Positions 34,124 through 63,609 of a stretch of 64,000 nt of DNA are shown piece by piece (position 1 is the first letter of the stretch; each line of letters begins with the position of its first letter). Source of the DNA: Paraspadella gotoi (Eukaryota > Animalia > Chaetognatha); assembly GCA_051294375.1 (NCBI GenBank), contig CM119268.1, positions 14,529,396 to 14,593,395 on the forward strand, in the 5' to 3' direction. Below the pieces are notes generated by a model that was given only the letters and a program-made list of their open reading frames with translations, was not told the DNA's origin and searched no databases. A program made the translations under genes and the position numbers.

Positions 34124-34360
<237 letters not shown>

Positions 34361-36234: not shown

Positions 36235-36270
36235 AGAAGGTTGCGTGTTCGAATCACGTCGGGCTCACCA
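36235..36270 (-). promoter_or_regulatory. Extended primer-binding site complementary to the tRNA-Trp 3' half
   Basis: The + strand reads AGAAGGTTGCGTGTTCGAATCACGTCGGGCTCACCA, matching the variable loop, T-arm, acceptor strand and CCA of eukaryotic tRNA-Trp(CCA). It lies 2 nt from the 5' LTR end. Confidence 0.85.
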
Positions 36271-36324
36271 CTTATGGCAACAGCCAGGTTGCCTGTGATG
36301 CCCATTGGGATGGGGCATCTCACT

Positions 36325-36404
36325 GTTGGCTTTGGGGCTTCCGACCCTCAGTGACGCATCCAGTCACTGGCGCGGTTACCCTAGGACGGTCTCGCTTTGC
36401 CAAC
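36325..36404 (-). ncRNA. Twister ribozyme (type P5 permutation) in the 5' LTR of element B
   Basis: Identical to 35837-35917 except for one C after P4. Predicted U^A cleavage between 36378 and 36377. Confidence 0.82.
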
Positions 36405-38392: not shown

Positions 38393-39594
38393 TTTGAAAG
38401 TTTGTCGATTAAAATCGATTAAAAAAAATATTGAGACGACAAAATGAAAGTTTTTTTTTTTTTTGTGTTTCCGAATCGGGTCTCCAAGAAAACTGCAGAT
38501 TGGATTTGTTAAAAAAAACCGTTGGGGATTTATAAGAATCCTCTTTTTTCTCGGGATTACTTGGTTTCCGGTCGCAGTGAATCAGTTCCGCTTTTACAGA
38601 CGTATCGAGTCAAAACGGGTATTAATTTTGTTTTGTCGAAACTTATTCGTATGTACGTAAGAATTGCTAGTAGACTGCGTGAGACTTAATTTACTTACTA
38701 TAAATCAATAACGGATATTGGATTCCGCAAACGAAAACGCTGCTTTTTGTAAGGCTTTGAAAAAGAAACCATCTTTCTTCTCTTATCTGTTTCGAGAATA
38801 ATCTGAGGTGGAAAGTTCCGTTTCCAGTCACCCTTTGCAATTTTGAACCAATCGTTGCCTCTGAGAGACTTCAATTCTGGCATTTTCCCCTACACTTACG
38901 CCCGCTCGCATTTATTGAGAATGTCTATTTTGTAATTTGTGAAGTATGCAGGACTGAATAAAAAAAGACATTTCTTTCAAAAAAGAAATTTTAATAGTCT
39001 TAAAATTTAATTTAAAAACAATTTAAAATTGATAATTAAATTTAAAAAATTAATGTAACTCGAAAGAATAGGATTTTTCTTTTCACGAAATAATTTTCAG
39101 ATTTTAAAATCAATTAAAAACAGACGCAACTTTGAAAACTAAAGATATTCTAATATGATGTTTAATTGTAAAATTATGTTTTAAGTCTCAATTTTTTATG
39201 GTTTTGTTTAATTTTCTCCAGATTATCTGTTACGTACCGCTATCACCAAAAATTTTCAAAAATAAACTGTGTAACAAGACAGAAATAAAGCTAATTATAT
39301 TCAATAACTCGGATGAACTCTTAATTGCACATTAATCTAATGAATTTTTTTTTTTCGAACGATAAATCTTGAACAAACGAAAGAAAAAAGAATTAAGAGG
39401 GCAAATTCTTTGGCATGACTAAATACTCAGAGCTTCGAATAAAAAAATGTTCACAGATTGAACGCAGGGAACGTTGGGCGCGGTCGAGGGGCAACTTGCC
39501 CGTCGCACACAAAAAACAAACATCGGGCACGATATCCTCGCACGGCCGAGCACCCCGTTCCCGAACGAGTACAAAAGGAACGTCAATTTCAAAA

Positions 39595-40751
39595 TCAGGT
39601 GGTCGGGCAAGAGCCAAGGTTGACGTCCCCGAACGGTTCGCCACCCCTGAGTGGCTGCGTTCGATTCTCGAAACGGAAGTCGCGGATGCAGCCGACGAAG
39701 GGTTCCGTGGCGCGAAGGGCGGCGAAGGTCGCCCCCTCGGGCACGCCTCCGACGTAGAACGGATCGTTAGTGTCCGTCGAAGAAATGCCCGCCTAGATAA
39801 AACCAAGTTTAGAGAAAGTTAATGAACGAATTGACAAAACAGAATTGTAATTGGCAAGGCTTCAACAGTCCTTCATTGCAACAACTTACCTTTCCGATGC
39901 CCGGAGTCTGGAAATCGTCGTCGACCGTGAGAGTCACAACGTTTTTAGCTTTCACCGCCTTTTGAGAATTGAAGAAAAAGAATAAGGGCATTGAGAATTA
40001 ATTAAGTCAAAACATAAACAAGACAAACACACATTGAAGAGACGAGAAGGATCGTATCCTCACCATGATCTCGTGCCAGTTTCCGTCGCACAAGTAGTTC
40101 TTGGCTTCGGGTTCGTATTTGGTGAGGATCTCCCCGGCTCCGTTGTTGGCGCTGAAGATCAGATTGCCGTCCTGCATCTGCAGCATGAGGTAGTCGTCCT
40201 TGCGCGCGGATTGGATGGCGACGATGGCGCCGTCCATCGTGCGAGGTTTCATGGCGAATTTGATGATCAGGTCGAGTCCCACGCGGAAGTTGTCGACTAG
40301 GTTGTGAAAGAGTGAAAAATTGAATATAAGTTTGTATTCTTACCTATATTTACTACTTTTTCATAAACAACTTTGCTTTCGTACAGAGTTTGATGTATCC
40401 TCCATCGATGCCAAAGAAAGTCCCGTCCTCCGATTCGGCGGAGCATAGGCTGGTCCCCACCTCGACGGGCGCTTCCCGAGACTCGAACCGACTGTTCTTT
40501 TGTTTAAAGTCGCGCATACATCCGATGAAACCAGAGGAGACGCTCTGCAGCGAAAATTTTTTTTTTTTTTAAAGCCAAAGAAAAGGCCAATTGCATGGGA
40601 CTACGAAGTAAAGTTTCACACTAAGTTTTGTAATTTATAACAAAAAAGAAAACTTACGTCCACGTTCCTCATAAACTTCTTTCTGTATTTTCCTTCTTTA
40701 ACTTCAGGCGCGATGCCGCCAAGGTAGAAAGGAGGTTTGATGTTCATCGAC
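39595..40751 (-). CDS. LAMA3/5: Laminin alpha terminal exons (end of LG4 and LG5), intact copy
   Basis: Exons 40751-40658, 40544-40385, 40296-40064, 39958-39890 and 39792-39595, ending PFYVGGVP...FVGCIRDF...VNLGSCPTT*. The frame is open. Confidence 0.88.
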
Positions 40752-41049
40752 CTAAAAATATAATGAGATTATTAAAATTATAAAGTGATAATCCAATACG
40801 TTAGCTCGGTCGCTCTTAAAGCCGGGTAAGTATTGAATAGAAACGATGAAAAATGGCTCAAATAATTTCAGGAGAATTATCATTATTTCGGGATTCAAGG
40901 CTAAAGAAAGATTTCAGTCAATTTTCGTTTACCAACGAAATATTTTTTATCCAAACGTCAATTCATCAAAACAGGGCAAAAATCTATCAATTTGCATCAA
41001 AAAAAGGGAGAGAGAGAATCAAAAATGTACGCGCTGGGTGGTTGGAGAG

Positions 41050-41651
41050 TAAGGCGTAGTAAAACTTCTAAATTTAACTTTAATAAAAATTTTAAAAGTG
41101 AGGAACGAACAACATTATACTAATGAACATTTATGTATAAAAAAATTATAATAAATTTTACAATTTACGCAGTAGGCCATATTTATCTTAGTACTAATCC
41201 AATAAATGTTAAAATTTCAAACAGTTTTTCTAAGATTTTTTTGCAGATTTGGATTTGTCATAAAAAGTTGATAAAAAAATATAACTATTTTTAAAAAATT
41301 CCTTCATTAAGTGGGTCAAAAATTAGAAAAAGCTATATTTTAAGCTGAAATTAACTTTTTATATATTAAATATAGTTTTTGTAATTTTTAACCCACTTAA
41401 TGGAAGAATTTTTAAAAATAATTTATATTTTCTTTATCACTTTTGACGAGGAATTCAAATCTGCAATCAAAATTAAGAAAAGCCCATTTTGAAATTTTTC
41501 AATTTTATAAGGATAATACTATATATAAATATAGCCTACTGCGAAAATTAAAAAACATAAATTAATTTTTTTTACAAATTAATGTTCACTGATGGTATGT
41601 TGTTCATAATTGACCTTTAGAATTTTCGTACGTAACTTTCACTACGCCTTA
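41050..41651. mobile_element. Foldback MITE (about 600 bp, near-complete imperfect palindrome) with 8-bp TSD
   Basis: Termini TAAGGCGTAGT / ACTACGCCTTA; TSD TTGGAGAG at 41042-41049 and 41652-41659; arms pair inward to about 41350. An 8-bp TSD is compatible with hAT-type transposases. Confidence 0.85.
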
Positions 41652-42379
41652 TTGGAGAGTCCACAATGCGGACTGGGGTATCATTCAACGCAAACTACTT
41701 TTCAATATAAAGAGAAATATATCAAAACGGAAATTGCTACCATGGCAGATGGGTCTTGCTTATAATCGATAAATATGGCTGACTCTAAAATAATTTTATA
41801 TTTGTGTTGGATAAAAAATATGTTGAATAATATCCGCTTTTAAATGTAGCGACGGTATGACGAGGAATGGGAGATAGAATGAATTGTTTTTCTGTGCAAG
41901 TTGTTTAAACTTTCGATAAAGCAGTACATTTTTAAAACCGAGGAACTTCACGCAATTTCAGGAGCCACGTGGTGGAAAAAACAAACGTGGTTCACTCTAA
42001 CGGCAGTTACCTGTCCTTTCCAGAGGCACTACGTTTTTTTTGTCAAAGGAAAGGAAAATATAAAACCGAGATTAGGTCTACAAGCTAATTTGACACCAGA
42101 AACAAAATAAAACGTTACACGCAACCAAAACCAGTAAAGTTCATGATTTTTTTTATTTTCATTCTTGATAATTTTTTTTTTTTTGCATGATGGTTGCCGC
42201 TAACGATCCTTTTCATTTCTGCAATATTATAATATAATAACGAGTTAATCTTTCTACGGAAAGATTAAAAGTTTTTTTTTTTCGTTCCGAGATGCGAGTT
42301 TTTTTCGTAGTGGCGAAACAATAACAATAACTGTCGCCCACGAAAACTCGAGAAAGATTTATTAACACGGAACTTCGTT

Positions 42380-44885
42380 ATTCCATCGCAAACTTGAGTT
42401 TATCAGTCACGTGAGTAAAAAGGTGATGCTTAATTTTAATTCCCATGGAGTAAAAAATTTGCAATGTGCACATTCAAATATTCGACAAGCGGACTTCGAT
42501 GACAAGTATTCATTTTCTTTAGCGTTAACGAACGATTGCCAACCAACGCGCCAGTTACTTGAGATTTTTCGTAATCTATCGTAGATGGGGCGTCCATTTC
42601 GTGTGATTCAAAGTAGTCAAATCCTGAGCACTTTGTTATTCGTGATGCGCGATGACGCACTAATTTTTTCGGTCGATGTTTAGCTTGATGATTAAGAAAA
42701 CGTATTCTGTGGTTACTTTCGTAGTCACAAAAATTACATTTGTGAATAATGTTTGAATGGGTGTATCGGTGTGACATCAGCTTACATTTTGTGTTGGTAG
42801 AAAAAATCGCAAGTTTCACAAAAATATTTTGGTTCTGTTGCATGGAATCTTTGTGCATTTGCAAGGTATAAGAAGTTTTAGAAACGTAATTACAAATTGT
42901 ACAAGAAAAGTCTCTCGCCGCTTTCTTACGCGTAGTAATTCAATTCTCTCAATTTTTTTTTTTCATATTCTGATTTATGCATTCTCATCTTGTGCCGATT
43001 CAACCAGGTTTGATTTGGCTACATAATGGCAATATCGCACTTGTAAGTTTTTAGAATGCGTCCAGGTTTTATGTTGATACATACGAATATGGTTCATTGC
43101 CGTGTACCACAAATGTCGCCTGTCAATACAAAAATAAAAATTTGTAATAATGAATTAATATGGAGTATCACTCATGCTACAATACAAAACTACTCCATCG
43201 TTTTACCACGTAAGTTTGATTGTCATGCCAATACTTAATGTGCCTCCGTAATAAATAACTTCGGTGGGAGGAGAATTCACATTTTTCACACTTAAAAGTT
43301 TTTCAATTTGGTTCCTGGACTAATTGATTGTTCCTCAGACATCACGATGGAGGACACTGTGTTTTCAACACATTTATTTCGTCAGTCTTGTCATTTTCCA
43401 AGTTGACAGATTTCCTTTCGCTATTTTCCATTTTGCTACAAAAAAAATAAAAATAGAAAATGGTGAAACAAGCAATTTTCAAATTTTCATAGAAATTTCA
43501 TAGTAGTAACATGATACTAAAACTTGATAAATGAAATGCTTTTTGAACATGCAGAACTAGTTGTAAGAATAAAATCATAAACAAAAGTTTGAAAACAAAA
43601 AAATTTTGAAAAACTGAACTGCATGTTATAAATTTGAATAAAAAAGAAAAAAAAATTCAGACAAAAAAACAAGCATAATTCTAGTACTAAACCTGGCAAA
43701 AAATACTAGTTTATGACAGTTTATTACAATATTACAGTTTAAGGATAAAATCAAGAAACTTTTTAATTATGAGTTTTGTAATTCGTTTTCACATTTTATA
43801 GTCGAACAGTTTTAGCTCAACTTGAGCTTGTCGCCACGTGGGATAAAAGATGATGCTTGATGCTAATTCCCCAAGGAGTAAAAAATTTGCAGTGTGCACA
43901 TTCAAAATGCGTCCTAATGGACTAAAATGGAGTTCATTATAACAATGGGGTCAGTCCGAGAAACTTGGTCATATGTAAACTTGGTGAATTTTTAAATTCT
44001 TCTGAGGACAAATGTTCATCAATAACCGAGTTGTCCTTTAAAGTGAATAGTAAGGCATTGGGATCTTTTTGGTGGTTTTCCTTTAATTGACATATTTTTA
44101 GATGCTTCTTAAAATCTAATTTGCTAGTTGCCACAAATTGACACTTTTACATATGATGAACTTGCGATGTCTTGTACGTTTTATGATCAGAAAATAACTT
44201 GTATTTTTTGTTTTATAATCGCATTCGTGACACTCGTAGATTTTATCGAATGAACGAATTTATGCTTATAAAGTTTGGCTTGTGTATTCGTAGTGAAATA
44301 ACAAAGCTGGCAAAGTATTTCGCGTTTGTACTGTGGCTATCTCGGTGGCGTTTGAGCGATTGATGGAGTTTCGTGGTAAAGTCACATTCTGGACAGCTCA
44401 ATATTTCGTTATTAGGCGATTTCTTTTTAAACTGAATTTTTTCCTTGATGATTCCGTGATTCTCCGTTCGTGTCTGGTCAACGTATTGCTGACGAAGAGC
44501 CGATAATTACAAACGCTGCACTTGAAGGTTCGAGTGGAATGCTTAAATATTTGTGTTGATAAAGACGAATTCGATTTATTCCCGTGTAGCCACAAATATC
44601 ACACTGCAAATATAAAAGTAATATAATATTAAAAACCGATTTATTTATAAATTAAAATGTTAGGAAGCTTTCAATCTCTAATTACAAATTTGGATAAAGA
44701 AATTGCTTACCATGTGCGTTATTTTGTCATGCAATATTTGACGTGAGCATTCATCAGTCCTTTCGGGCGATGAGAAATTACATTGTGAACATTTAAACAA
44801 GTTTTCCTCTTTAATTTCTTCTTTATTCATCGAAATTTCAAAGTTTTCAGTTCCATATTAGTTATTTCTACTGAGTTTGGTCCAT
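42380..44885 (-). pseudogene. Frameshifted second copy of the two C2H2 zinc-finger genes
   Basis: Colinear with 31057-33607, with scattered 1-bp deletions; truncated at the duplication boundary. Confidence 0.7.
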
Positions 44886-46768
44886 TTTTAGCATAGAAAT
44901 TGCATTACGACTGCGTCGGAGGATAATTTTGAAATATATAGATTTAGAGAGAGCCACAAAAATTATGTATCAAAAAGAGAGATGTAATATTTTTTGGATT
45001 TTTTTTTACTCGAGTACAGAGAAAGGTGCGAATTAAATTTTTAAACAAAACGGTCTTTTAGTTGAATTGTCTCCATATCTGTTTATCCTGAGAAGTTTTA
45101 TTGTGAGACAAAATTGGAGTTGGGTTTCCGCACTTTTAACTCTTGAACCAGCTGACTCGAACTGATTCGTGAGGATGAAAAGCTAAAGCAGAGTGCTCAC
45201 TTTTGTCGTCAGAGCGCGAGGCGTTGCAGAGAAAACAAAATACGAGAATACTGAATTCAATTTCAATTGGAAATATAATTAAAATTTTAACTATATTAAA
45301 CGTTCAAATTGTTTATTTTTAGCATAAAAAAGTTTCGATAATAAAAAGTTAATACAAAATGAATCCGCCTAATATTATTATTCATATACTGATAAGGTTA
45401 CGGCAACCGGCTCTTTGTCGGATTCCGCAAAGGTCTTCTGCATTTTCTACGCTGGAATCGGCGTTCCATTGACGCTGATAATGTTCACCGTTTGGTGGAG
45501 CGATAATGATTCCAACTTCTCTCTTATTGCTAAAAATCACATTATCCGGCTTGCAGTCTTACGTTGCGTCGTCGTCGTCGTCGTCGTCGGCGTTATGCTT
45601 TTTTGCAATCATTTCTATTGAAAGTGTGATATCATAAGAAGTTGAAAATGTATATATGGCTTCTAATCATCAAGATCTTTAAAATCAATATTCGTATTTA
45701 TGTTTTATTTACAAAACAGCTTCTCTCTCTCTCTTTAATTATATGTCGCTCTCTCTCCCTCTCTTTTCTCTGCAGCGGCTGTCCAGCTTCTCTCTCTCTC
45801 TCTTTTATTATATGTCGCTCTTTCTCTCTCTTTTTTCTTCTGAATAGGGGTAGCCCTCTCAATGGGGTGAGTCAAAAATTTAGAAAGAGAACATGCTCAA
45901 ACGAAAATTTATACATTTTTAAGTATACTTTCATGTAAAAAAATTCTTAACGGCTCTATACCAAGTATTTATTTTTTAATATTTATTTATAGAAAGGAAA
46001 AGAGTTCGACCCTATTCAGATTCGTCGAAAAACGAGTTCAGCTATGCAGCGGCGGTCCAGCGGCTGTCCGGATAACCGATATAAACGGGTGACTAATACG
46101 AGTCTTCGTTTGGCGGAACTGTCCAGCTTCTTTCTCTCTCTCTTCCTCTATTTCTTTCTCTCTCTCCTCGATACTCGATTGTTTGTTCTTATTTACGTTG
46201 ACGATTCTCGTGTCATGAATGCTATCATCGTAAGAATGATCTATCAATCAAGAATGACTATCTCGTCTCAATCATGGTTATCACGCATCATCTTTGGTTA
46301 TCATCATCAATATCAATCTCGCGTCATTTTTTATCTTTTTTTATTTCTTTATTTCTTCTCTCGTCGGCGAGATCCTGTTCTTTTAGATTTTTTCTTATTG
46401 TTCGGTGAGCTCATAAGAGAAAATTTTCTGAGCTTGAAATCGTACTGTAGTAAACAGGCACAGAATAAGTGAGTCATGAATCGTTTTTGTACTTAACTGT
46501 TATTTAAAACTTTTTCCTTAGTTTGAGTTATCTATAGCGGAGACTACAATCTTTTACTATTTTTACTCGATTTATGTTCACCGAAGTTCGCAAAAATTTA
46601 ATGTAAAGATACACTAGGAAAATAAAAAATAATTTATTTGAATTAGGTTATTCAGTTATCCTTAAATGAATCGAGAAAAATGTGATTAAATATTTTATTT
46701 TGAATTATTAAAATCGGCGAAAAGGAAAAAATAAAAAACTTTCATGAACTTCATTCGTATTGAGTCCG

Positions 46769-47849
46769 TCACCGCCAGACGAAGGGGCGATCATCCCGGC
46801 GATGGCAACGAGCATGGACAGCGTCGAAAGACCTGAATAAAACAAAAGAACAGTCGTAGTTAAGATTAACTTAACTTAACTTAAATTTCGTGAAATATGA
46901 ATCTCAAAAAAAAGAACGGTGATTCCAATGTGTTGCGCCGCAGTGACTATTTTCACATGAACTAGCATGACAGAGCATGACTAAAAAAACTTTTTTAGCC
47001 TTGATGAGGTTTTTTCCTGTCTTAAATGAACATAACTATAGGAATTATATGTTTTTAATGTAAGTAGGACAGATCGAACGACAGGCCGACGGAAAGGTGA
47101 CTTATAGAGTTGCTAAAAACCTAAAAAAAATCCATATCGAAACTCACGCAAGCGGCGATGAAATGGTAGCAAAGAGGGAAAAACATTGTTGTGCAGATGG
47201 GAAATCTGTTCCCTTGCAAGACGAAGACGATGCAGACCAATGCGGACACAGCATCAGCGCGATCAGAGGAACAACTGCAATGGAATTATTGAATGGAATT
47301 TGGTTGCTTTTGAACCATACAGTTTTAAGATAGATATTAGAGACTTATATTCGCTGGCATTTGTTTTCATTTACAGGACAAAAGGAAATATGACGGAGGC
47401 GAGATAGTAGACGTAATTACTGTATATGTATCAAATGTTACTCGTTGTTGCGCTTTTGGTCGGGCCTTTCTTACCACGAAGGCTTTCCGAACAAACTTTT
47501 CCAACTGGATGCAAGAGTACGAGGATTCCAAAGGCGATAAAAATCGTCATCATCGTCATGATTTCGTAGACGATCACTTGACCGGCGACCCGGGATCCGA
47601 CTGCTGGTAATGCTCGAAGAGGCGACGGCGGTGATTGAAGACCTGAAGTCAGAGCAGCGAGAAGTTATTTGGGAGCATGTAATTAAAAGAGACTACATAT
47701 GAAAGTGAAAAAGGGATAGTTCAAAGTTGGCGGGAGCTCACTTTGCAGTTTTCAATAAGATGAATAAATCGAATCGATTGACCAGACCAAAATACTCACG
47801 ATTATGATTAGGGCGAAAATGCCGATGAGACTTAACTAACGGTGATCAT
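46769..47849 (-). pseudogene. Frameshifted second copy of four-TM paralog 5 (probably sequencing errors in the duplicated segment)
   Basis: Colinear with 37254-38392 but carries many 1-bp deletions in every exon. Confidence 0.7.
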
Positions 47850-49032
47850 TTTCAAAGTCTGTCGATTAAATCGATTAAAAAAATATTGAGACGACAAAAT
47901 GAATTTTTTTTTTTTTTGGTGTTTCCGAATCGGTCTCCAAGAAAACTGCAGATTGGATTTGTTAAAAAAAACCGTTGGGATTTATAAGAATCCTCTTTTT
48001 CTCGGGATTACTTGGTTTCCGGTCGCAGTGAATCAGTTCCGCTTTTACAGACGTATCGAGTCAAAACGGGTATTAATTTTGTTTTGTCGAAACTTATTCG
48101 TATGTACGTAAGAATTCTAGTAGACTGCGTGAGACTTAATTTACTTATATAAATCAATAACGGATATTGGATTCCGCAAACGAAAACGCTGCTTTTTGTA
48201 AGGCTTTGAAAAAGAAACCATCTTTCTTCTCTTATCTGTTTCGAGAATAATCTGAGGTGGAAAGTTCCGTTTCCAGTCACCCTTTGCAATTTTGAACCAA
48301 TCGTTGCCTCTGAGAGACTTCAATTCTGGCATTTTCCCCTACACTTACGCCGCTCGCATTTATTGAGAATGTCTATTTTGTAATTTGTTGAAGTATGCAG
48401 GACTGAATAAAAAAAGACATTTCTTTCAAAAAAGAAATTTTAATAGTCTTAAAATTTAATTAAAAACAATTTAAAATTGATAATTAAATTTAAAAAATTA
48501 ATGTAATCGAAGAATAGGATTTTCTTTTCACGAAATAATTTTTAGATTTTAAAATCAATTAAAAACAGACGCAACTTTGAAACTAAAGATTTTCTAATAT
48601 GATGTTTAATTGTAAAATTATGTTTTAAGTCTCAATTTTTATGGTTTTGTTTAATTTTCTCCAGATTATCTGTTACGTACCGCTATCACCAAAAATTTTC
48701 AAAAATAAACTGTGTAACAAGACAGAAATAAAGCTAATTATATTCAATAACTCGGATGAACTCTTAATTGCACATTAATCTAATGAATTTTTTTTTTCGA
48801 ACGATAAATCTTGAACCAACGAAAGAAAAAGAATTAAGAGGGCAAATTCTTTGGCATGACTAAATACTCAGAGCTTCGAATAAAAAAATGTTCACAGATT
48901 GAACGCAGGGAACGTTGGGCGCGGTCGAGGGGCAACTTGCCGTCGCACACAAAAAACAAACATCGGACGATATCCTCGCACGGCCGAGCACCCCGTTCCC
49001 GAACGAGTACAAAAGGAACGTCAATTTCAAAA

Positions 49033-52000
49033 TCAGGTGGTCGGGCAAAGCCAAGGTTGACGTCCCCGAACGGTTCCGCCACCTAAGTGGCTGCGTTCGA
49101 TTCTCGAAACGAGAGTCGCGGATGCAGCCGACGAAGGGTTCCGTGGCGCGAAGGGCGGCGAAGGTCGCCCCTCGGGCACGCCTCCGAGTAGAACGGATCG
49201 TTAGTGTCCGTCGAAGAAATGCCCGCCTAGATAAACCAAGTTTAGAGAAAGTTAATGAAAGAATTGACAAAACAGAATTGTAATTGGCAAGGCTTCAACA
49301 GTCTTTCATTGCAACAACTTACCTTTCCGATGCCGGAGTCTGGAAATCGTCGTCGACCGTGAGAGTCACAACGTTTTTAGCTTTCACCGCCTTTTGAGAA
49401 TTGAAGAAAAAGAATAAGGGCATTGAGAATTAATTAAGTCAAAACATAAACAAGACAAACACACATTGAAGAGACGAGAAGGATCGTATCCTCACCATGA
49501 TCTCGTGCCAGTTTCCGTCGCACAAGTAGTTCTTGGCTTCGGGTTCGTATTTGGTGAGGATCTCCCCGGCTCCGTTGTTGGCGCTGAAGATCAGATTGCG
49601 TCCTGCATCTGCAGCATGAGGTAGTCGTCCTTGCGCGCGGATTGGATGGCGACGATGGCGCCGTCCATCGTGCGAGGTTTCATGGCGAATTTGATGATCA
49701 GGTCGAGTCCACGCGGAAGTTGTCGACTAGGTTGTGAAAGAGTGAAAAATTAAAATTGTATTATTACTATATTTACTATTTTATTCATTAAACACTTTGC
49801 TTTCGTACAGAGTTTGATGTATCCTCCATCGATGCCAAAGAAAGTCCCGTCCTCCGATTCGGCGGAGCATAGGCTGGTCCCCACCTCGACGGGGGCTTCC
49901 CGAGACTCGAACCGACTGTTCTTTTGTTTAAAGTCGCGCATACATCCGATGAAACCAGAGGAGACGCTCTGCAGCGAAAAAAAAAAAAAAAAAAATTTTC
50001 AAGGCAAAGAAAAGGCCATTTGCATGGGACTAGAAGTAAAGTTTAACAATAAGTTTTGTAATTTATAACAAAGAAGAAAACTTACGTCCACGTTCCTCAT
50101 GAACTTCTTTCTGTATTTTCCTTCTTTAACTTCAGGCGCGATGCCGCCAAGGTAGAAAGGAGGTTTGATGTTCATCGACCTAAAAATATAATGAGATTAT
50201 TAAAATTATAAAGTGATAATCCAATACGTTAGCTCGGTCGCTCTTAAAGCCGGGTAAGTATTGAATAGAACGATGAAAAATGGCTCAAATAATTTCAGGA
50301 GAATTATCATTATTTCGGGATTCAAGGCTAAAGAAAGATTTCAGTCAATTTTCGTCTTACCAACGAAATATTTTTTATCCAAACGTCAATTCATCAAAAC
50401 AGGGCAAAAATCTATCAATTTGCATCAAAAAAAGGGAGAGAGAGAATCAAAAATGTACGCGCTGGGTGGTTGGAGAGTAAGGCGTAGTAAAACTTCTAAA
50501 TTTAACTTTAATAAAAATTTTAAAAGTGAGGAACGAACAACATTATACTAATGAACATTTATGTATAAAAAAATTATAATAAATTTTACAATTTACGCAG
50601 TAGGCCATATTTATCTTAGTACTAATCCAATAAATGTTAAAATTTCAAACAGTTTTTTCTAAGATTTTTTTGCAGATTTGGATTTGTCATAAAAAGTTGA
50701 TAAAAGAAATATAACTATTTTTAAAAAAATTCCTTCATTAAGTGGGTCAAAAATTAGAAAAAGCTATATTTTAAGCTGAAATTAACTTTTATATATTAAA
50801 TATAGTTTTTGTAATTTTTAACCCACTTAATGGAAGAATTTTTAAAAATAATTTATATTTTCTTTTATCACTTTTGACGAGGAATTCAAATCTGCAATCA
50901 AAATTAAGAAAAGCCCATTTTGAAATTTTTCAATTTTATAAGGATAATACTATATATAAATATAGCCTACTGCGAAAATTAAAAAACATAAATTAATTTT
51001 TTTTACAAATTAATGTTCACTGATGTATGTTGTTCATAATTGACCTTTAGAATTTTCGTACGTAACTTTCACTACGCCTTATTGGAGAGTCCCAATGCGG
51101 ACTGGGGTATCATTCAACGCAAACTATTTTCAATATAAAGAGAAATATATCAAAACGGAAATTGCTACCATGGCAGATGGTCTTGCTTATAATCGATAAT
51201 ATGGCTGACTCTAAAATAATTTTATATTTGTGTTGGATAAAAAATATGTTGAATAATATCCGCTTTTAAATGTAGCGACGGTATGACGAGGAATGGGAGA
51301 TAGAATGAATTGTTTTTCTGTGCAAGTTGTTTAAACTTTCGATAAAGCAGTACATTTTTAAAACCGAGGAACTTCACGCAATTTCAGGAGCCACGTGGTG
51401 AAAAAACAAACGTGGTTCACTCTAACGGCAGTTACCTTGTCCTTTCAGAGGCACTACGTTTTTTTGTCAAAGGAAAGGAAATATAAAACGAGATTAGGTC
51501 TACAAGCTAATTTGACACCAGAAACAAAATAAAACGTTACACCAACCAAAACCGGTAAAGTTCATTATTTTTTATTTTCATTCTGATATATTTTTTTTTT
51601 GCATGATGTTGCCGCTAACGATCCTTTTCATTTCTGCAATATTATAATATAATAACGAGTTAATCTTCCTACGGAAGATTAAAAGTATATTTTTTTTTCG
51701 TTCCGAGATGCGAGTTTTTTTCGTAGTGGCGAACAATAACAAAACTGTCGCCCACGAAAACTCGAGAAAGATTTATGTTCAATTGTTTGTGCGCGTGCTT
51801 TTTTTTCGCAAGGGCGCGATGCTACTGTTCACAGTTTAGTAGGGAATGTTGATTGGTTAGTGAATTGGCAGTCTTGGGGGGGGGAGGGAGAGGAGCGGTC
51901 TTGGTGAGGGGGGAGCGGTTTGATATCGGGGGCGAGGGGGCTTGCGGTTGGGTTCTTAGNNNNNNNNNNNNNNNNNNNNNNNNNACGAGCTACTTACGTG

Positions 52001-54234
52001 GATTGACCCGGCGCCTCGCCCTCGTCCAAGGTTTCGCCGTCGATAAGAAGTTCGCCAGAGCTGCCCGTTCGTCGTAGGCGCATCTGGAAGATCGTGCGAA
52101 GGGAAATTAGAATTATAAAAAGTATAAAACATTGTACCACAATGTAAATAAAATTGATATTTACCGCATGCCACTGGCCGTCGTTGAATGTTCTCTTCGA
52201 CGTGAGACGCAACACGCCGGAGCCGCAGTTGAAGGCGTAATAAACGATTCCGTCCTGGAAAATAACCGCAACTCCAAGTCACTCAAACTTTAAAAAAGTG
52301 CGTTTTATTTCGCTAAAAAGTTTTTTACCTTCATATAAACGGATATAAAGTCTGTCTGTCTGTCTCCGGAAACGTAAAACAAGAGTCCCATCGGGGCGGA
52401 TGTTTGGAAATCGAAGGTGAAGTCGTGTTTGGATCGAATGCGACCGGGGACCTTGGAACGGGGGGGGGGCAGGAGGTCAAAAGTTAATGACGGGAGCAAG
52501 AAAGGAGAAGAAAGATAAGTTTTCGAAAGAAAAAAATGTTGAGAGAAATTTCAGGAAGGCAAAAAAAAAGGCAATAGAAAGAAGAAACCATTTAAAAATC
52601 CGATGACCATATCTTGACAATCCCTTCACGGCCTCGACATCATCGATCGCGTTGTACCTTGGCGAATTCCAGCCTCGAGTCCGGCGCCCCGCCAAACTTG
52701 TACCCATCGACGCTGCCAGATCCGCCACTTCCGGCCCCGGCGGCCGAAGCTGAAGACGCCGGAACTTTGGGCAACGCGCACTTGACTCCCGCGGACCCGT
52801 CCAATAGACGCCAAGAGACCTCTTCCGAGAACGGGCCGGCGCCGTAGTCGTTGAGCGCCATCACGCGGAAAATGTAAACGCGACCGGCGAGTAGTTGGCG
52901 AAGGATGGCGCTGCAAAAATAGTTTTATTATAATACAGAGTATGTACATGTATGCATGTGTTCAAGTCAGTTATTAAGAGGTAGACGAAGATATCAACGG
53001 ACCTCCTCTGATCGCCAACGATATTTATTGTGCTCCAAGCAGAATCGTCGATATCCAAGCCGGTGCCGTCGTCAAGGGCATAGAAAACGCGGTAACCTAG
53101 CAACGAAAATTAAGTTCATGAAAATTGAAGAGGAAACGAACTAGATTAACATCCATGACGAAGTTTTCTCTACCGGTTATAATTTCGCCAGGATCGACGA
53201 AGTATTCCCAAGAAACTTCAACTTCTCCCGCGGCTTGTCCGTCAGCGACGCCGATATTGGTCGGCGCTTTGATCGGTGGACCTAAACGAAAACAAATTGG
53301 GCGTCAACAATGGGTAACGATGACGGAGTTACGACGACGAAAATGATGTAAGACAGATGTAACAGACGATCACTTAGGATAATACACGAATAATGAAAGT
53401 TTATAGAAGATTGTGTAAATATATAAATCCATTTTTGAAAATATTTTACGCGCAGCAGAAAAATTTTCATTCAGAGATTCGCTATTCTAAGACAGCGCGA
53501 AATAGTTCAGAATATGTAACTATAAACGCTTTATTGACGCGTTATTAAACGGTAAGGGATATGGAAATCCCGACTTTCAGACATTTTATTATTCTCAATT
53601 GATTCCTTTAAAAAGTATTAGAAAACCATCAATTTATAACTCGGGTAATTAATCTCAAAACAAAGGATAAAATTCATGACATTTTAACGTCTTGCAAAAA
53701 AAAAGTCTTACTCTCGGGAAAATTGGGGCGGCTTATCGGCGATGGACCAAGGTCCACAGTTTCTCCCTTATCTTTGATAAAAAAAAAAAATTCATGCAAA
53801 TTTTGTAAATAAAGAAAGATGGAGCTTTATATAATTGTTAAATAAGCTTTTTAACACGTCACATCAAAAGAGCAACGAAAGAAGTAAATTCAAATCGGAA
53901 GCGGTTAGTACTCGAATTAAAAAAATACTTACCAGGGAACGGACGGCTATGACCTCGATCGAAAGTCTACTAATTGATATGACTTTTGCTTTTCAATATT
54001 TAAAACTAATAACTTTTTTCAACATTTCCTAAAAGATTCAGAAAAATCTTATAGATTCAATTATGCATGATTGTTTAATTTCCTTTATATTTCGTTGTAT
54101 TTCGAATTTTGTTTACAAAGTAGAGAGTTTTAAATTTTCTTTAAACGATTTTATTTTATATCGGACATGTTTCGGTTCTTGTTCGAACCTTCATCAGCGA
54201 AAATATTTCAAAGTGGCAATTTTTGAAATAAGTT

Positions 54235-54313: not shown

Positions 54314-57300
54314 TCAAATTAAAAGTTGCCAACAAATATTTGAGAAAGGACAGTGGTCAGATAAGTGAGGACAGCTTCAGTGAAGTTGTTTAAATAAAAT
54401 TAAAAACTCTCTACTTTGTAAACAAGATTCAATTCTAAAAGTTTATTCTTTAGTAAATTTATATTTTCCCCTAACGAAATTCACCTGAGAAGAGCGGCTT
54501 CGGCCCAGGCGCGTCCCCGTCGGCCCCCGACGTTTCCACGGCAACCGAACCCTCGTGCAGGTTGTTAATCTGATCGCTAACTCTATTAGGGTGGTTATTG
54601 CGGTCGGCCGCGGACTCGGCCAAAACAGGGACAGCAGTGGCGTTAATAGATATGGTGCCGATAGAGCGAGAAGCGGAAGAAGCCGCGGCGGCGGCGACGA
54701 GCCGTTGTTCATTTGTCGAAACACTGCGGTTAGTAGCGTCCCCGAACCGCGCGGCGGAGCTAGGGGTCTCGTTTGCCGAGTCCGACGAGCCGCGGCTCTC
54801 GTCGGATTGCAAAAGATCATCGCTTTCACCTGTATTCGGTTCGCTGGTGGGAACCTCGACCGTGGGTTCCGTGATTGGGGGAAGGTTGGGGATCAGGCAT
54901 TGATCCAGACCGACGTTGACGCGGGAACTGGGCGGCCCGACGGCAAAGTCGATGAATCTTGTCGGAAAGAGGTAATATTACTATCACGAGCCAAATTCAC
55001 CAAAGACTTTTACAAATTGTAATGCTTACTTGTCATTGATATTAACATCGGCCAAGCATCCCTTGAAACGTTTAGTGGTTGGAACGTTGTCGGGATTTAG
55101 CCGGTAGGACAAGGGCACGCCGCCGAAGTACATGGCCTTCGTCTTGATCTTTGGCTTTTGACGCAAGTCGACCTGATAGAATAAGAGGGAAAACGAGAAA
55201 AAATGATAAATCCCGTTAAAAATATAATTTCGGACTTAAATTAGGATATTAACCTCGATCTTGTCGTCCACTCGATCGTCGAACGTGACCGACAGCTTCT
55301 TCTTCCGCAGAGAGACGGTCACGTGATGCCAGAACCCATCGCTGAATCCCGCGCGAGCCGCTTCGCTGACGGTGGTGTCCACAGCGACGGAGCTGCCACG
55401 CGAAGGCTCTAGCACCACGTGGATTTGTCCGTCAACGAGACCGATGGCCAGAGACTGTTTTGAAAAGACGAATGGGTTAAAAAAAACAACCTCAATTTAA
55501 AACGAGAAGACGAGAGAAACAACTTCATTTCATCTACCTGATCTTGGTTCTCACTGGCGGAATAGACCAAGAGCCCGTCGTCCTCGACCGTGCGGAACTT
55601 GAAGCCAAAGTCGAAGCCGTTAAAGTCGCGCGGAGGCACCATCGCGATGTAGCCCTCGTCGCCGTGCTTCTTGAAGGTCGCTAGGGACACGTCCTGAGAG
55701 GTTAGCGAAATAAAGAAACATCGGTGAGGCAAAAGCTACATTATCGTACGAGTGGGACAAAAAAAGCATGCCGCGAAAATTAGCCAAACCAGTGTATGAT
55801 TTAACCTGTTACATTTAACTGTATTTAGAGAGAAAAATATCTTGGGTAAAGTCATTTTTACTGTTGGCGTTAATTCATCATAGCGAAAACAATAAAATAA
55901 AATAGTTCCCTTTATCCATTTTTATTGATAACGCGATCAATCATTAAAAATCCTGCAGAATCATCAAATTTTTAGCGGAAAACAGAGCGAAGAGTCTAGC
56001 AAATAACTCGCTACATGCTTTTAATATCCTCGGCGATATGAAGTACAATAAAAGCGGATTAAAAAAAAAACAATAACTTTCGCGTAATGCGGAGCGTTAA
56101 AAAATTTTCGCTCCAAAATGAAGCGACGGTTTAAAATCGTGCCAAGATAGTATCGTCGATACGGAAGAAGTTGGGACTGAGGTACTGAGGTAGCAGTAAA
56201 AGTGAAGTTTTGAGATAGAAAGATAGAGAGTAAAGATAAAGTGACAAAAATGCGGCGTGGATTAGTACCTAAGGGGAAAAAAGGCAAGGAAAGCTGCTCC
56301 GAGAAAAGCTTTATCTCTTTGAAAAGAAAATAGCCTTTCATAGAGAATGATTCAATTTTTCTTTACGTTTAGTTAGAGAAAAAAAACAAAGACTGCTGTC
56401 TTTCGCGATTTGGTGAAAATGGGGAGGGGGTTTCGTATCTCTCTCTCTCTCAGAGATGAAAAAGAGAAAAACGGGAATACGAAGAAAAATCGCTTCATTT
56501 CAATTTCTCAAAAAAAAAAAAAAAGACATGACAGGTCAAAACTTCCGTGACATGCCGTTTTAAGTATTCTCCGGAGATGTCATGCCAAACTCTCGTGGTT
56601 TGACATGACAAGTCATCAAACGCGGACGTACCGAGAAATGGGGCGCCACGCAATGGGCACCGGCTCTCATCCATTGCAATTGAGACACTTTTTTTTGTGT
56701 TCGTGTGTGCGTATTTTAAATGTGAAATTTTTGTTATGACACGAAAATCGAGTTATAAAGATTATTTTTCAATTGAACCAAAAAACTGTCAACGCGAGAA
56801 CGTCATCGTTAATATATGATAGAAACTGATGTTAGTGTTTGTATAACTACTCCGATTCTTGAATACATACGTACGTATACGGAAACATTATAACAACAAA
56901 CGGGGGAATAATAGAATAAGAAGAAACAAGTCGGTCTACTCACCATATTCATCACCCCCGACAACCCCCCCACGCTCCCAAAACTCCTCACCGAGAAGGA
57001 GCATCCCTCGATGATCCCGCGGGCCTCCTCGTTGTCCTTGAGCTTTCTCAACGCCGTCCCCAATATGACGCCCTGGATGCAACCGTGGAATCCGGCCGAC
57101 GTCACTTCCGGTCGCCGGTGATCCATCTTGACTCCGCCGATCATGACCTCGTCGGTGATGGAGAGTTCCTTCATGTTGCCGGGCGCCATGCCTGTCGCCT
57201 CTGCGGAATGAGCAAAACGAATTTATTCATTAGAAACTTTCTAAAAACTTTATTTTTACGTGAGTTAAACGAAGTTTATTCCGTAAATCTTTTAAAAAAA

Positions 57301-60300
57301 CAACCCAAATATTTAAAAAAATTTAAGTTAAAGGGGAAAACTAACTAGTAACGATTAGCATTTACGTTCGGTAATATTCTTTAATTGAGGCACTTTAACC
57401 ATATGGCCGAGCGAGAAACACCGAAAATTTGGGTTCAAAAAGGAGGCGAGCGCCTCGGAAACTGTTTTTTTCTCCTGCCGCTCGTGCGTGCATAAAAACT
57501 GGGCTGGGAGTAACCGTAAAAATCAGCGCACGTGCGCAACCTGCTGCACACCGGAGCAGCAACTTTTCAGGAGCGAACGGGATGTATTCTCGATCCCAAC
57601 TTATCTTTCGAGGGGTTAACCTTTGCCACCGTGGATCCTCGATATATGACCTCGAGGTCAATTTTTTTTATTTTCATAAAAAACCAAATGAATATCACTT
57701 GGGGATTAAAAAAAAAAATACATCGGATTCCGATTTCAAGTAAGAATCTGCAAAGCTCGCGATTCCCTTAAGAATCCAGACAAGTTATGGAGCCAACAAA
57801 AACTGTGTCCTTCATATAAAATGCAATGAAATCCCGCAAAACCGAATAAAAAATCTAGTGGTTCCCACTGGAATCCAAAGAAAATCCCCTCCCTCCAAAA
57901 ACAATCAAACCGAAACCTTTCAAGCATAAGCGTAGCACTCCACTATTCCCTACCCAGTGTACCCACTCCACTCCACTCCACTCCACTCCACTCCACTCCA
58001 CTCCACTCCACTCCACCTCCCAATAGAAAAAACACACAAATCCCCGCAAGGTTTTCTTTATTTCTTCTCATCGATTCAATTCTCGTTCCCAATCCCCTCA
58101 TCCGATTTCGTCAGTCGGAAGTCCTTCCAAGGTTTTTCTTTCTTTTTCTTTTTCTTTCCTTCTTCCATCTCGAACTCTTCTTTCTCTCATATGTTTTATC
58201 GTTTCCTAAGAGGTTTCTTCGTTTTTCTCTCCGAGCATCGCTTTTCATCCTCCTTTGACTTCCGCGTTCTTCCCTTTCATGAGAGTTTCTTTTTATCCCC
58301 ATTCTTTCCTTTTTTTCCCTCTCTCCTTTTCTTTCCTTTTTGTCTCTCCATTCTTTTCAAAAAAGTTTCAGTCTTTTCAAGCTTATCTCCTTTCACCCGC
58401 AAACCACCATTGTCGTCGTCCTTTTTAAAAAATATTTCCTTTCCTCACATTTTTTTTTGGGGGGGGCGGAGACACATTCTAATATCTTTTTTTTTTCTCA
58501 CTCTTTTATCCACATCATAATCAACGAAAATCTATATTCGAGCGAGAGGCACGTTTTTTTCTTTCGATCTTCCTTTTTCTCCTTTTTTCTCACCGAAAAC
58601 TTAAATCCCCGGCACGTGATAGCAAAAGCTTAACCTCAGACAATGCTTTTTATATCTTAAATCTCTCATCAGGGGCGGAAAAAAAAACCCAAGAAATGTC
58701 GGTCTAAAAAAGGTTAAAACTCTCCCCGGCCTCTCCCCCAAACAAACCACCTTACCCAACTGGTTGTCCACGTGAAGGATTCCAGATTTTTCCCTCCGCT
58801 TAAACTTGACCGAATGCCATTCCCCGTCGTTGAACTTTTTGCCCGCTTTGGGAGAAAGGGTCGCAACTCCTGATCCCAAGTCGTACTGATACAGCAGAGA
58901 TCCGTTCTCCATGGAGAGAGACATGAAGTCTCGCTGTTGGGGGAGAGGGGAATTTTTTTCGCGTGGGGGGTTGAGGTGGAGGAGTTTGGGGGGGGGGTAG
59001 TAGGCGTCCGTGGAGACGAAGAAAGGGAGGAAAGTGAAAGAGGAAAGATGATACATGCGGGTGACGTTCGTTGGAGGAGATCGAAAGAGATTTTATCGGA
59101 AAAGAAAAGGAAAATAGAAGGGAAGGCATGGATAAAGAAGATAGAAAGGAAATAGAAAAAAGGGGGGAAAATAGGAAAGAAGGGAAGGGGGGAAGAGGGA
59201 AAGGTGTAAAAGTTAAAAGAAAACGAAGGAAAAAAATGGAAGGAATGCGAAAGAATTGGAGGGCAAGGAAGGAAAGTGAAAAAGTTCAACAGCGGGACAC
59301 GAGTAAAAAAAAAATATGAAAAGAATAGGGAAAGTAACAAAAAGATGGAATCGGGGTTGAGAAAGTCGATCGGGTGAGGGCCGGGGAAAGGAACAAAATA
59401 TGAATTGAGAATTAAATATTAAGGCGGGCCAAAATGTAAAACTTTTTATAATGAGGAATAATCCAAAATTCTTTTCTCTTTTGATTTTTACTATCATTTT
59501 TTAACTGGTATAACATTGAAGCATTTAATTATTTATCAAAATTTTATTATCTTTAAGGGATACTCTAACATTATTTATATTACAAAACTCTTAGTTTTTA
59601 CTTTGTTCTGCCTTATTGAATATCCGATTCCCTTTTTATATAAAACAAAATGGGGAAAATGAAACTTAGGTCTTTTTCAATATTGTTTTTAAATTTTCAC
59701 AAGATTGACGTCACATTTGATTTAAACATACAGTTGTTTCCCTTTTTCATTTAAATTTATTTTTCTCTGGATGTCGATAATAACATTATGGGGTGTGTGT
59801 GCTATCTTTTTTATATCGTGATCCTTGTTCTATTTTCATAAAGAATTCATTTTTTGAAAAGCTTTTAAAATAAAACCTACTTAAAACACTATGGTGCACT
59901 ATTCCTCTAGATTTTAAAAAATTAGACGAAAAACAAAAGTCCAATTTGTTTTTCGCTAAGACTATAAAAACAAAAAACAAATTAATTCATAAATCAAACA
60001 AAATCGCCTCCTAGTGGGATCCCGAGAGACGTAACAAATGTTCTATTAATATTTTCTATAGGTAAAAAGGGGAAACCACAACAAACCATAAAATAAAAAA
60101 AGAGCAAACGAAGGGGGACATGTTGGAAAAAGGGGGAAAATGTGCTTCTCGGAAGGTGAATTTGGTTCTCGAAATAAAATCGGTCTGGCACAGTTAATCT
60201 TCAAAGTTGGCGAGTGAAATGTCATTTTTCACCGAGTGTGCGATGAAAACTTAACAAAAAAAAAAAAAATAGGGTCGGAGCAGTTTGAATATCGGCACCA

Positions 60301-63300
60301 CCCAGACGCTTCGTGTTAGTTGTGATTTAATTCAGGCAAATTAATCTGCAATCACGATTCAAAGGTTGAAAAAAATTTTTTATTGTTATTTCAAATTTTT
60401 AACTTACTTCGTGACCATCCTACATTTTCAAATTTTTATTTAAAGAAAAAAATGAAATTTGTTGATTAATAAATCCAAAAATAAAAATTAATGTTCCTTC
60501 CCTTCACAAAAAAAAGGTGTTTCATTAATTTTAAATGCGTTTCTATTTATAAATGTGCTACGTAAATCACTTCACCTGTTTATGTTAAAAGCATCTTCAA
60601 ATTAACCCAAGGAACGAAAAATTCAATACAAGAGGATGCTGTTTGTGAACTTATTTCAAATTTCAAGCCTATGAGTGAGTTTGACGGCCATAGCCTTTAC
60701 GTAAATTACGTAATTTACGCACATCGGTTAGTGGTCAAAATATTTTTTTAATCTAAATTATTTTTAACTGGCTATGTCCGATTTTGTGTCCAAATTCTGC
60801 GAGCAATTAACATTTTATAAACGTCAATTATTATTTTCATTGCTTAAGTGTAAAAAGACAAACTAACAAAAAAAACTCCAAATCAAAGTGACAGTGCTAA
60901 ATCAATTCTCGCGTAGGGGCGCCTTCCCGGCATCGTGGCATATTTACATACCACCGACTTTGGGGTAGCAAAAAAAAAAACGGGCGATTTTCAAAGAAAA
61001 AAGATGGGCGGGGAGGGTAAAGCTTTAGAATTGAGATTTGTTGTTTGTCGCGTCATTCAAACATCGAAGCCGTACGAATAGGCAGGCGATGGGGGAAAAA
61101 AATCTTCGAGGCGTTTCATGCCAAAGCGATTACGAAGAACGGGGGGTGATGGCTGCGCAAGTGGGCCGACAGGGTAGCGCGAGGAGGGAGCGGTACTTTC
61201 TGGTGTACACTGTACCAACGCCGCAAGCCAAGTGAAGCAACTTGCTTAGACTTATTGAATGAAGTTTCGTTTTCAATGGTTAGGAGTATTTTAAAATCAC
61301 AATAATATTGATTAAGTTAACAAAAAGAAATTGGCGCAAAACACATTGTCGTATTGACAGCGATAAATTGTCATAAATCCGCGACCACCACCATCACTAC
61401 CACTACCACCACATTTTTAGAGCGAAAACCACCCTAGCGTCGAAACACTCACGTCTTTGCCGACGAAAAAGAGAATTCCGTCCTCGGCGTAGGTGCGGAA
61501 TCGGAGCACCACCTCCGAGCGACGACTCGGTTGAAAGCGGCGTCGGTTGAGAATGATGTAACCGTCTCCCTTGAACTGGACCGAGTCGGAGGAAGACTCG
61601 GGGAAGTCGCTGGGAGGGCGAACAAGGTAAGTCGAGAGCGTAAAGGTGAGGTGAGAGCAGTAGGTGAGTTCGGAAGAGTTGAAAAAAAAAGGCGAGGGAA
61701 AAACGGAGAAAGTCGTAAATTAATCGAGAATTTAAAAAAAAACCCAAAAAAACAAAAAGTTGCCGACGATGGGTTTTAATTACAAGAACACAGTCAATTA
61801 GCTGAAAACTGCATAAGTATGAGAGTAATTAATCTCGTCAATCGTTACAAATAGCTCGTTCTTGAAAGAAGTGGTTATTTTCTGACGCAAAAGACGTCAT
61901 TAGGATAAATCATTAAATTTCTATGATGAAAGATGGTAGTTATATATATTAATTACGTCTGATGAAAGGAGAAAATGGTAAGAAGGGAAAATATGGAGAG
62001 TTGGAGCTGGAAGGAAAAAAAGGAGAAAAAGATTTAAAAGGTGAATCAGAGAACGGAAAAGAAAGAAAAAAGAAAAATAACAGATGAAAAAAGAAAAAAG
62101 CGAAGTGGAGAGTGAAAAAAAAGTCGCGCTAACTGAGAAAAGACTTGTCGTTAATCGCTGCTAATCACTTACTGCCAATCAGATTCCCTGTTGGTCGCGA
62201 GAAAAAATAGAAAGTTATATTTGAGAGAATCTTCGCGTGCAAGATTGGAAAGTACGATGTATAGCGAAAGGATATTAATATTTAAACTGTACCGCAAAGA
62301 TTACGGTTAGTCCCAAATAAAAGTTCTAAACCCATCAAAAGTTTGAAACGCGCGATGCAGGATTAAATGAAAATTTAACTAGTGATAATTACGGTTTTAT
62401 TCTCAAGCAATTTGCATGCGCCTCTTATGAGCATCATGCCTGAAAAATTAAATTATTTATACAAATTTCCTAAAGAAAAATCTCGCGTCGGTTTTTTTTT
62501 TTTTTTTAAAGCGATATCTACGAAATACAGGATAGCCCCCCGTCCAGTCAGGGAAACTCACCCTTCTTGACAGGGAGCCAAGTTTTCGCCCTGCACGAAG
62601 TTCCAGAGTCCGACGGGATACTGAAGGAACTTTAATCTTTCAATGCAGCCGTCAAACCGTCGATTTACAATCTCCCGCGAGATCTGAAAAATGAATGATG
62701 ATAAAATTAGTTACCACGCCTACCGGGCGTCGCATATTTATATTTAAACGACTGAAGAATTACTTATTAATATGCTCTATCCAAACATGACTATGTTCAA
62801 AATCCTAACTCAAAACTTACGATGGACGTAGCAGGGATTCCGCCCACGTAAAGCTTGGTCGTCTGCCGAGGAAGATCGAGCACTCGGGAGTCTCCCTGCG
62901 CTTCGCCCGTCGCCGTCTGAGGTCCCTGGTCCTTTGAGAGCACGATGACTTTTCCGCGATGCTGGTCCCTGTTTGGGAAGTAGAGAAGTGCATCGGATGA
63001 GATCTAAACCAACAAAAAACAGCCAAACGTCCCTACACAACTTGCTCGAGAGTTACCTCTCCGCCCGAACTTGATGCCAGCTTCCATTGGCGAAGTTTTG
63101 TCCGTCGCAGCAGGCGACGGAGGCGGGTCCGCTGCCGAGGTCGTACTTGAAGACCACCTGCCCGTTGTCCAGCTCCAGCGACATCCAATCCTCCTTCCCT
63201 GCGATTTTCGTGCCGTCTGGGCCGAGGTAGAGGAGCAGACCGTTTTTGGAAGTCGTTCTGGGAAAGTAAGAAGTTTGATTGAATGACTGATTGATTTTAT

Positions 63301-63609
63301 TTATTAAAATTATGAATTCCGCTCAATAAATTAAAAAGAGTGACTGATTGATTGATTGAGCAAAGTGGATTGATTGATCATAAAAGATTACATTTTTCTC
63401 CGTCTTTGCCGATCTTACTTGAAGGAAATCTCCATCTTGGATCGAGAGGCCAACGCCTCCAAATTGGGCGTGGTCCTCAGCTGCAGCGTCGTCCTTCGTT
63501 CGAAGGTCATGCCGACCTTGATACGGTTCGAAATCTCCCGCGCCAGTTCGATCTTTTCGCGGAGGGCGGTGATGTTGGGGGCGATCTGGTTGGCCTTCAG
63601 AGTGATGCT
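49033..63609 (-). CDS. LAMA3/5: Laminin alpha chain (alpha-3/5 type), 3' part: end of coiled coil, LG1-LG3, linker with FN3, LG4-LG5; the 5' part lies beyond the window
   Basis: Phase-consistent GT-AG exons: 63609-63419 (LREKIELAREISNRIKVGMTF), 63257-63057, 62968-62821, 62683-62562, 61609-61453, 58933-58756, 57200-56992, 55693-55538, 55454-55254, 55172-55030, 54957-54485, (53771-53712), 53281-53174, 53096-53003, 52910-52658, 52451-52329, 52254-52165, 52083-51998, then terminal exons at about 50178-49033 (frameshifted in this copy). LG motifs include GLLLY, YDLGSG, NDGxWH, YxGG and FxGC. Confidence 0.92.
50478..51081. mobile_element. Second copy of the foldback MITE, in the duplicated segment
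   Basis: Same TIRs and TTGGAGAG TSD as 41050-41651. Confidence 0.85.
51960..51984. other. Assembly gap (25 N)
   Basis: Run of n inside a laminin intron. Confidence 1.
57965..58020. repeat. (ACTCC)n pentanucleotide microsatellite in a laminin intron
   Basis: About 10 tandem units. Confidence 0.9.

Follow-up and report, generated by a model that had tools for sequence, protein, structure and literature searches.

A laminin alpha chain of the chaetognath Paraspadella gotoi with a fibronectin type III domain in its LG3-LG4 linker

The analyzed stretch of Paraspadella gotoi DNA, called the window here, comprises 64,000 nucleotides and contains on its minus strand a gene that, judged by the domains it encodes, codes for a laminin alpha chain. 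Its 5' part, where the LN, LE and L4 short arm and the coiled coil of such chains would be expected, extends past the end of the window. Matches to laminin G (LG) domains were found in five ordered exon groups with Laminin II directly before LG1, and the gene order is Laminin II, LG1, LG2, LG3, a tether, a fibronectin type III (FN3) domain, LG4 and LG5, with the stop codon right after LG5. The end of Laminin II and the start of LG1 are encoded at 63419..63609 (Pfam Laminin_II, PF06009, 39.4 bits, cut-off 33); the sole laminin match of this exon in the PDB was to alpha5 and was weak (E 0.15). The LG1 exons are located at 62563..63260, with approximate ends (Laminin_G_2, E 1e-14; tblastn with L001, a related laminin locus; junctions from DNA), and the LG2 exons at 56991..61620, i.e., at about 61620-61453, 58932-58756 and 57201-56991 (Laminin_G_2, E 1.4e-15 and 9.4e-5; RNA joint 55692/56991). 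The junctions of Laminin II, LG1 and LG2 upstream of 57300 were read from the DNA alone. A possible 15-nt microexon, preceded by CAG and followed by GTAAGT, is present on the minus strand at 62173-62187, between the last LG1 and the first LG2 exon. LG3 is encoded at 55030..55693 (exons 55693-55538, 55454-55254 and 55172-55030; Laminin_G_2; RNA joints) and LG4 at 51998..52451 (exons 52451-52329, 52254-52165 and 52083-51998; Laminin_G_2, E 1.3e-7 and 0.01; RNA joints).

The end of LG4 and LG5 is present in two copies, both on the minus strand. The copy beside an N gap (49040..50179) is frameshifted, and the RNA differs from it by indels and five substitutions. The other copy (39590..40751) is intact, with an open frame and the stop codon, and its LG5 exon matched laminin alpha1 LG4-5 with E 2.1e-18; alpha1 and alpha2 were the sole LG4-5 structures among the PDB matches listed for this exon. 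When the 3' exons of the intact duplicate were used, the spliced sequence had an open reading frame between the first LG3 exon and the stop codon, which encoded 826 residues in the form with the long tether. The cysteines at positions 436 (linker) and 730 (LG5) of this model both aligned with L001.

The N gap (51960-51984) is located inside an LG4 intron. The block 31057-42362 nearly repeats the block 42380-51776, which ends near the gap (95-97%, differences mostly indels). The right copy, beside the gap, contains the LG5 frameshifts, and the RNA matched the left copy at four of the five substitution sites. The duplication is likely an assembly artefact, namely an unpolished overlap that leaves the FN3 exons untouched, and the frameshifts in the copy 49040-50179 are likely assembly errors. 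Several further features were seen in the window. C2H2 zinc-finger exons are present at 31019-33367 and 42436-44598, their frames being long in the left copy and shorter in the right one, and a tandem repeat at 34843-35738 (323 bases, 2.8 copies, 98% matches) marks the break between the duplicated blocks. An AT-rich intronic repeat at 50514-51077 (and 41086-41626), at which the summed contig depth was very high in the RNA run described below (up to about 10,000), has two copies that match at 75% in inverted orientation, so that the element may be palindromic and MITE-like. On the minus strand, 932-1625 and 8018-8359 are short coding stretches, hydrophobic and similar to each other, that perhaps encode paralogous small membrane proteins; a Pfam search of these two stretches gave no convincing match.

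The FN3 domain is made up of the first 98 residues of the spliced product of three exons, all on the minus strand. FN3 exon 1 (53174..53281, 108 nt; RNA joints) encodes the first two strands and the conserved Trp, FN3 exon 2 (53003..53096, 94 nt; RNA joints 53094/53172 and 52910/53003) a GY-x-V-x-Y strand and an acidic loop, and exon 3 (52658..52910, 253 nt; RNA joint 52449/52656) the end of FN3 and the start of LG4. All three exons have AG acceptors and GT donors, the joining phases are 1, 1 and 2, and the spliced frame is open, in agreement with the three phase-consistent exons that had been proposed in the earlier note. The intron ahead of FN3 exon 1 (54484-53282, 1203 nt) is a phase-1 intron and is located exactly at the N-terminal border of the domain. 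At the C-terminal border there is no intron, and exon 3 continues directly into LG4: the end of FN3 (to about 52817) is followed by 12 residues, the linker Cys (C-x-LP), a Gly/Ser/Ala stretch and the first LG4 strand. The previous reading that the third exon enters LG4 without an intron was thus correct. The GC content was 0.51-0.64 in the FN3 exons, 0.48-0.63 in the flanking exons and 0.27-0.42 in the introns, and GC3 was 0.61 in FN3 and 0.66 in LG4, with values of 0.76-0.79 in LG3 and LG5.

Transcript support was obtained from the public run X1, which contained 0.53 of the sampled words; none of the listed runs is annotated as RNA, and X1 was taken as such as its contigs are without GT..AG introns. 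Two further runs, X2 and X3, gave 0 and 1 records, which provides no evidence. X1 is one run from one study, which may derive from the assembled animal, and it was used in the form of contigs instead of reads, so that rare forms are dropped. The joints in X1 connect LG2, LG3, tether, FN3, LG4 and LG5, and one of them, 50177/51996, crosses the N gap. Four joints that enter, connect and leave the FN3 exons (53279/54483, 53094/53172, 52910/53003 and 52449/52656) all have GT..AG ends. The joint 52910/53003 uses the donor that closes FN3 exon 2, GTCCGT at 53002, which had been doubted earlier as weak and is in use in the X1 contigs. GT..AG ends were found at 14 of the 15 listed joints (17 in total), and at the position of the remaining one the window copy contains errors; the two unlisted joints are probably those inside an intronic repeat. 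A joint that skips FN3 was not present among the 15 listed of the 17 joints, and neither was a joint into an internal acceptor, in line with the claim that the FN3 exons are kept in transcripts. The two joints that connect the three FN3 exons and every listed joint downstream of them share the depth of 217.3, which is that of one 1730-nt contig, and the listed pieces of this contig span 48826 to 52910; we infer that it reaches, without branching, from FN3 exon 1 as far as the 3' end. In the X1 contigs the inclusion of FN3 looks constitutive. In a splice model, the loss of all three exons, of exons 1 and 2, or of exon 2 led to an early stop. The skipping of only FN3 exon 1 preserves the frame, and exon 3 contains four internal in-frame AG sites that could bypass FN3, and thus minor FN3-skipped forms are possible.

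The exon upstream of FN3 encodes the end of LG3 and an acidic tether rich in Ser, Thr, Ala and Pro, and it occurs in two forms on the minus strand. The long form (54485..54957) is documented by the RNA joints 54957/55030 and 53279/54483 and had a contig depth of 110, and the short form (54830..54957) is documented by the joint 53279/54828 and had a contig depth of 49; the two depths are not a measure of the isoform ratio. FN3 exon 1 is thus joined from two donors in the X1 contigs, 54484 and 54829. The use of donor 54829 removes 345 nt, equivalent to 115 residues, and leaves an open frame of 711 residues. The distance from the last LG3 Cys to FN3 is 138 residues in the long and 23 residues in the short form, and FN3 is present in both. 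The long tether has few aromatic residues, a net charge of -11 and three N-glycosylation sequons, while the short form has no sequon. The alternative tether donor is new here and was missed by the earlier note.

The FN3 consensus is characterized by a core Trp, two Tyr and Leu positions and the lack of Cys. The Trp, Tyr and Leu positions are all present here, and there is no Cys in the 98 residues; this residue pattern was written down after the sequence had been viewed and is not an independent test. The Pfam fn3 model matched exon 3 at its positions 50-82 or 52-82 of 84 (E 0.0015 and 0.0034, 18-19 bits), which is below the PF00041 cut-off of 25 bits in a scan that covered single exons, exon 3 holding the last third of the domain. 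FN3 exon 1 gave a Pfam match to positions 2-25 of Ig_RIMBP2 (E 0.051) and a single PDB match, contactin-1 chain 2ee2 (E 1.4), and for FN3 exon 2 alone there was no Pfam match and nothing else of relevance. A PDB search with exon 3 gave 43 matches with E values of 10 or less, the best of them being titin, HCF-1, receptor phosphatases and neogenin, and in the ESM Atlas 27 of 30 matches were fn3 clusters, with a weak recognition of 2205, below the mark of 2300.

As a pairwise yardstick an FN3 domain of a phage was used that scores 44.8 bits on PF00041 and that had been chosen using exon 3. Residues 6-98 of the spliced domain aligned to this Pfam-validated FN3 with a score of 92 (pairwise E 9.5e-8), which was reached by none of 5000 shuffles, and exon 2 is in register within this alignment. 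As the target had been chosen with exon 3, the fair test is that with exons 1 and 2 alone, which were not used in the choice, and here 3 of 5000 shuffles reached the score. The alignments of single exons were weak (365 of 5000 shuffles for exon 1, 124 of 5000 for exon 2), and with a second, weaker FN3 domain of the yardstick protein the match was not significant (271 of 5000 shuffles). Taken together, the Pfam match of exon 3, the PDB matches, the ESM Atlas clusters and the whole-domain alignment bear out the FN3 identity that had been read from the sequence hallmarks, and the domain is almost certainly a real part of the laminin chain. It has a net charge of -9 and a long acidic loop, and a motif scan of tether and FN3 detected no RGD, no LDV, no basic cluster and no furin-type site.

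A metagenome scan by LG5 alignment revealed four laminin loci from 129 matches. Two of them, L001 and L004, were used for the comparison of linkers, and L002 and L003 were left out as their linker is not spanned. Over 391 residues of LG4-5, L001 shares 38% identity with the chain described here, and the alignment begins at the same C-x-LP segment. The linker from Cys to Cys comprises 248 residues here versus 59 in L001 and 58 in L004; no fn3 match was found in L001 and L004, and FN3 is thus absent from both readable related linkers. L004 has a 61-nt phase-1 intron (296-356) in its LG3-LG4 linker, 16 residues before the Cys. The nearest LG5 relatives, P0001-P0003 (sources merc, JGI and Logan), are 71-81% identical to the model; they were three of 21 candidates in a word-index search with the LG5 exon among proteins of up to 2000 residues, and all three are too short for the linker. 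An ESM Atlas search with P0003 gave LG clusters only. Analogous word-index searches among proteins of up to 2000 residues yielded no relatives of exon 3 (0 of 2800 candidates) and none of the Laminin II exon (0 of 62), and no relative of exon 3 was found in a metagenome scan with 465 pattern matches. A second FN3 as a candidate donor was not detected within the 64-kb window. Nothing suggests gene transfer from a plasmid or phage, for which the matches were at chance level (E 4-6); one of these matches supplied the yardstick domain used above. In the accessible text of the literature searched, no description was found of FN3 in a laminin alpha chain or of FN3 in an LG3-LG4 linker, and the available portions of PMC3516229 and PMC2755686 contain nothing on FN3 in laminin. 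The lineage-specific insertion put forward in the earlier note was partly borne out: its support consists of the absence of FN3 in the two readable related laminins and in the vertebrate and fly literature.

The reading that we favor, with moderate confidence, is that the FN3 domain, which is spliced into the chain after LG3 and ahead of LG4, was probably gained through exon shuffling in this lineage, and that at the base of LG4-5 it likely serves as a folded spacer or docking block. The domain would have entered a phase-1 linker intron. Consistent with such an origin are the phase-1 intron at the N-terminal border of FN3 and the phase-1 linker intron in L004. A class 1-1 exon-shuffled module has phase-1 introns at both borders; half of this signature is present here, as the intron exists at the N-terminal border and is absent at the C-terminal one.

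According to the accessible parts of several publications, laminin alpha chains have five LG domains, of which LG1-3 bind integrins and LG4-5 dystroglycan and heparin, and a flexible LG3-LG4 linker (PMC6744579, PMC11260871, PMC3544787, PMC10381214), which is tied to LG5 by a disulfide (PMC3544787, accessible part). By analogy with vertebrate laminins, the linker Cys 12 residues after FN3 would bond to LG5. This putative disulfide would place the C-terminus of FN3 within 12 residues of LG5, and thus FN3-LG4-LG5 would move as one distal unit, with the upstream tether as the flexible part. The alternative donor would set the distance of this unit from the integrin-binding LG1-3 cluster, and FN3 together with the two tether lengths would likely lengthen and adjust the reach between the two cell-binding ends of laminin. 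The two best-known binding modes of FN3 domains are those of RGD-integrin ligands and of heparin sites. Because the domain is acidic and contains no RGD, LDV or basic cluster, it probably serves neither as an RGD-integrin ligand nor as a heparin site, which favors the role as a spacer or docking block. A more far-reaching version, in which a rebuilt laminin end is shared by the whole clade, with a conserved FN3 that has a ligand of its own and forms a third binding unit attached to LG4-5, and with a tissue-specific splicing switch between tethers of 23 and 138 residues on which the simultaneous engagement of integrin, dystroglycan and the FN3 partner depends, is speculative and rather unlikely.

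An alternative that is possible, although less probable than the spacer, is that FN3 is mainly a new binding site for a partner that canonical laminins do not have, such as a collagen, a basic matrix protein or some non-RGD receptor, and that the spliced tether controls the access to it. FN3 is kept in both forms while the tether varies, its hallmarks are intact, it has a long acidic loop, and extra FN3 and VWA domains add interactions to vertebrate collagens (PMC3308698, accessible part). However, the lack of RGD, LDV and a basic cluster speaks against this reading, and the searches with exon 3 gave no FN3-bearing relative. It is doubtful that the order LG3-FN3-LG4 is old or widespread in invertebrates, already contained in public annotations, and lost in vertebrates, flies and the animals from which L001 and L004 derive. 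The GC3 value of FN3 is similar to that of the neighboring exons (0.61 versus 0.66-0.79), indicating that the gain is not very recent, and the protein searches extended to 2000 residues, which is below the length of full-length laminins. Yet the two readable related linkers are both without FN3, the accessible text of reviews gives five LG domains, a flexible linker and a basement-membrane toolkit that is very little changed among invertebrates (PMC3308698 for the latter), and the literature searched, as far as accessible, contains no description of this order.

Improbable is the view that FN3 is a tolerated passenger without a selected role that landed at the only flexible position within the LG tandem. 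Linker length and sequence do vary between animals (248 versus 58-59 residues from Cys to Cys), and laminin alpha chains with insertions or lost LG domains in particular lineages have been recorded: the fly alpha1,2 chain is extended at its N-terminus and carries an insertion of 45 residues, and a worm laminin chain is without the fifth G domain (PMC2148222, accessible part). But a passenger is at odds with three exons whose splice sites function, whose frame contains no stop and in which every core residue is retained, and with the lack of observed skipping. The N gap and the 11-kb near-duplicate, about 700 bases downstream of FN3, could indicate that the FN3 exons belong to another gene or result from an assembly or annotation artefact. 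This is highly improbable: FN3 and LG4 are fused in exon 3 without an intron, the RNA joints link LG2 through LG5 and cross the gap (50177/51996), and no RNA substitution is listed inside the FN3 exons. Barring a misassembly of X1, the independent GT..AG joints in X1 refute it.

According to current descriptions, the LG1-5 end of laminin alpha chains hardly differs between animals, and the LG3-LG4 linker is a flexible spacer with a passive role. The spliced-in, presumably folded domain and the two natural tether lengths indicate that the LG3-LG4 site accepts new modules, and they offer a natural test of the importance of the distance that separates the integrin site from the dystroglycan site. 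If it is shared by relatives, the FN3 insertion would be a rare genomic marker of the clade. The event itself is of an ordinary kind, i.e., domain shuffling in a matrix protein, and the proposed function is deduced from sequence.

Usherin is composed of LN, LE, LG and many FN3 domains and is similar in that LG and FN3 modules occur in one extracellular protein; it differs from the chain described here, which has Laminin II, five tandem LG domains, one FN3 and a stop after LG5. The FN3 domains of titin, HCF-1, receptor phosphatase, contactin and neogenin share the C-terminal pattern L-x-x-G-x-x-Y-x-FRV-x-A-x-N-x-x-G, but here a single copy is located inside a laminin, and the matches were short and identified no donor family. 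L001 has the same C-x-LP-x-P start and G-x-x-FG strand, and L004 the phase-1 linker intron, whereas both have plain Ser/Thr/acidic linkers, of 59 and 58 residues, respectively. Vertebrate alpha1, alpha2 and alpha5 (PDB 2jd4, 1dyk/5ik4 and 5xau) and Drosophila alpha1,2 and alpha3,5 likewise consist of Laminin II and five LG domains, and the known laminin alpha chains also share the long flexible LG3-LG4 linker, the linker Cys before LG4 and the extra LG5 Cys (CDG motif). The canonical linker is free of folded domains; in contrast to the known laminin alpha chains, as far as the accessible literature describes them, the linker of the Paraspadella gotoi chain contains a 98-residue FN3, measures 248 residues from Cys to Cys and has a tether that is set by an alternative donor.
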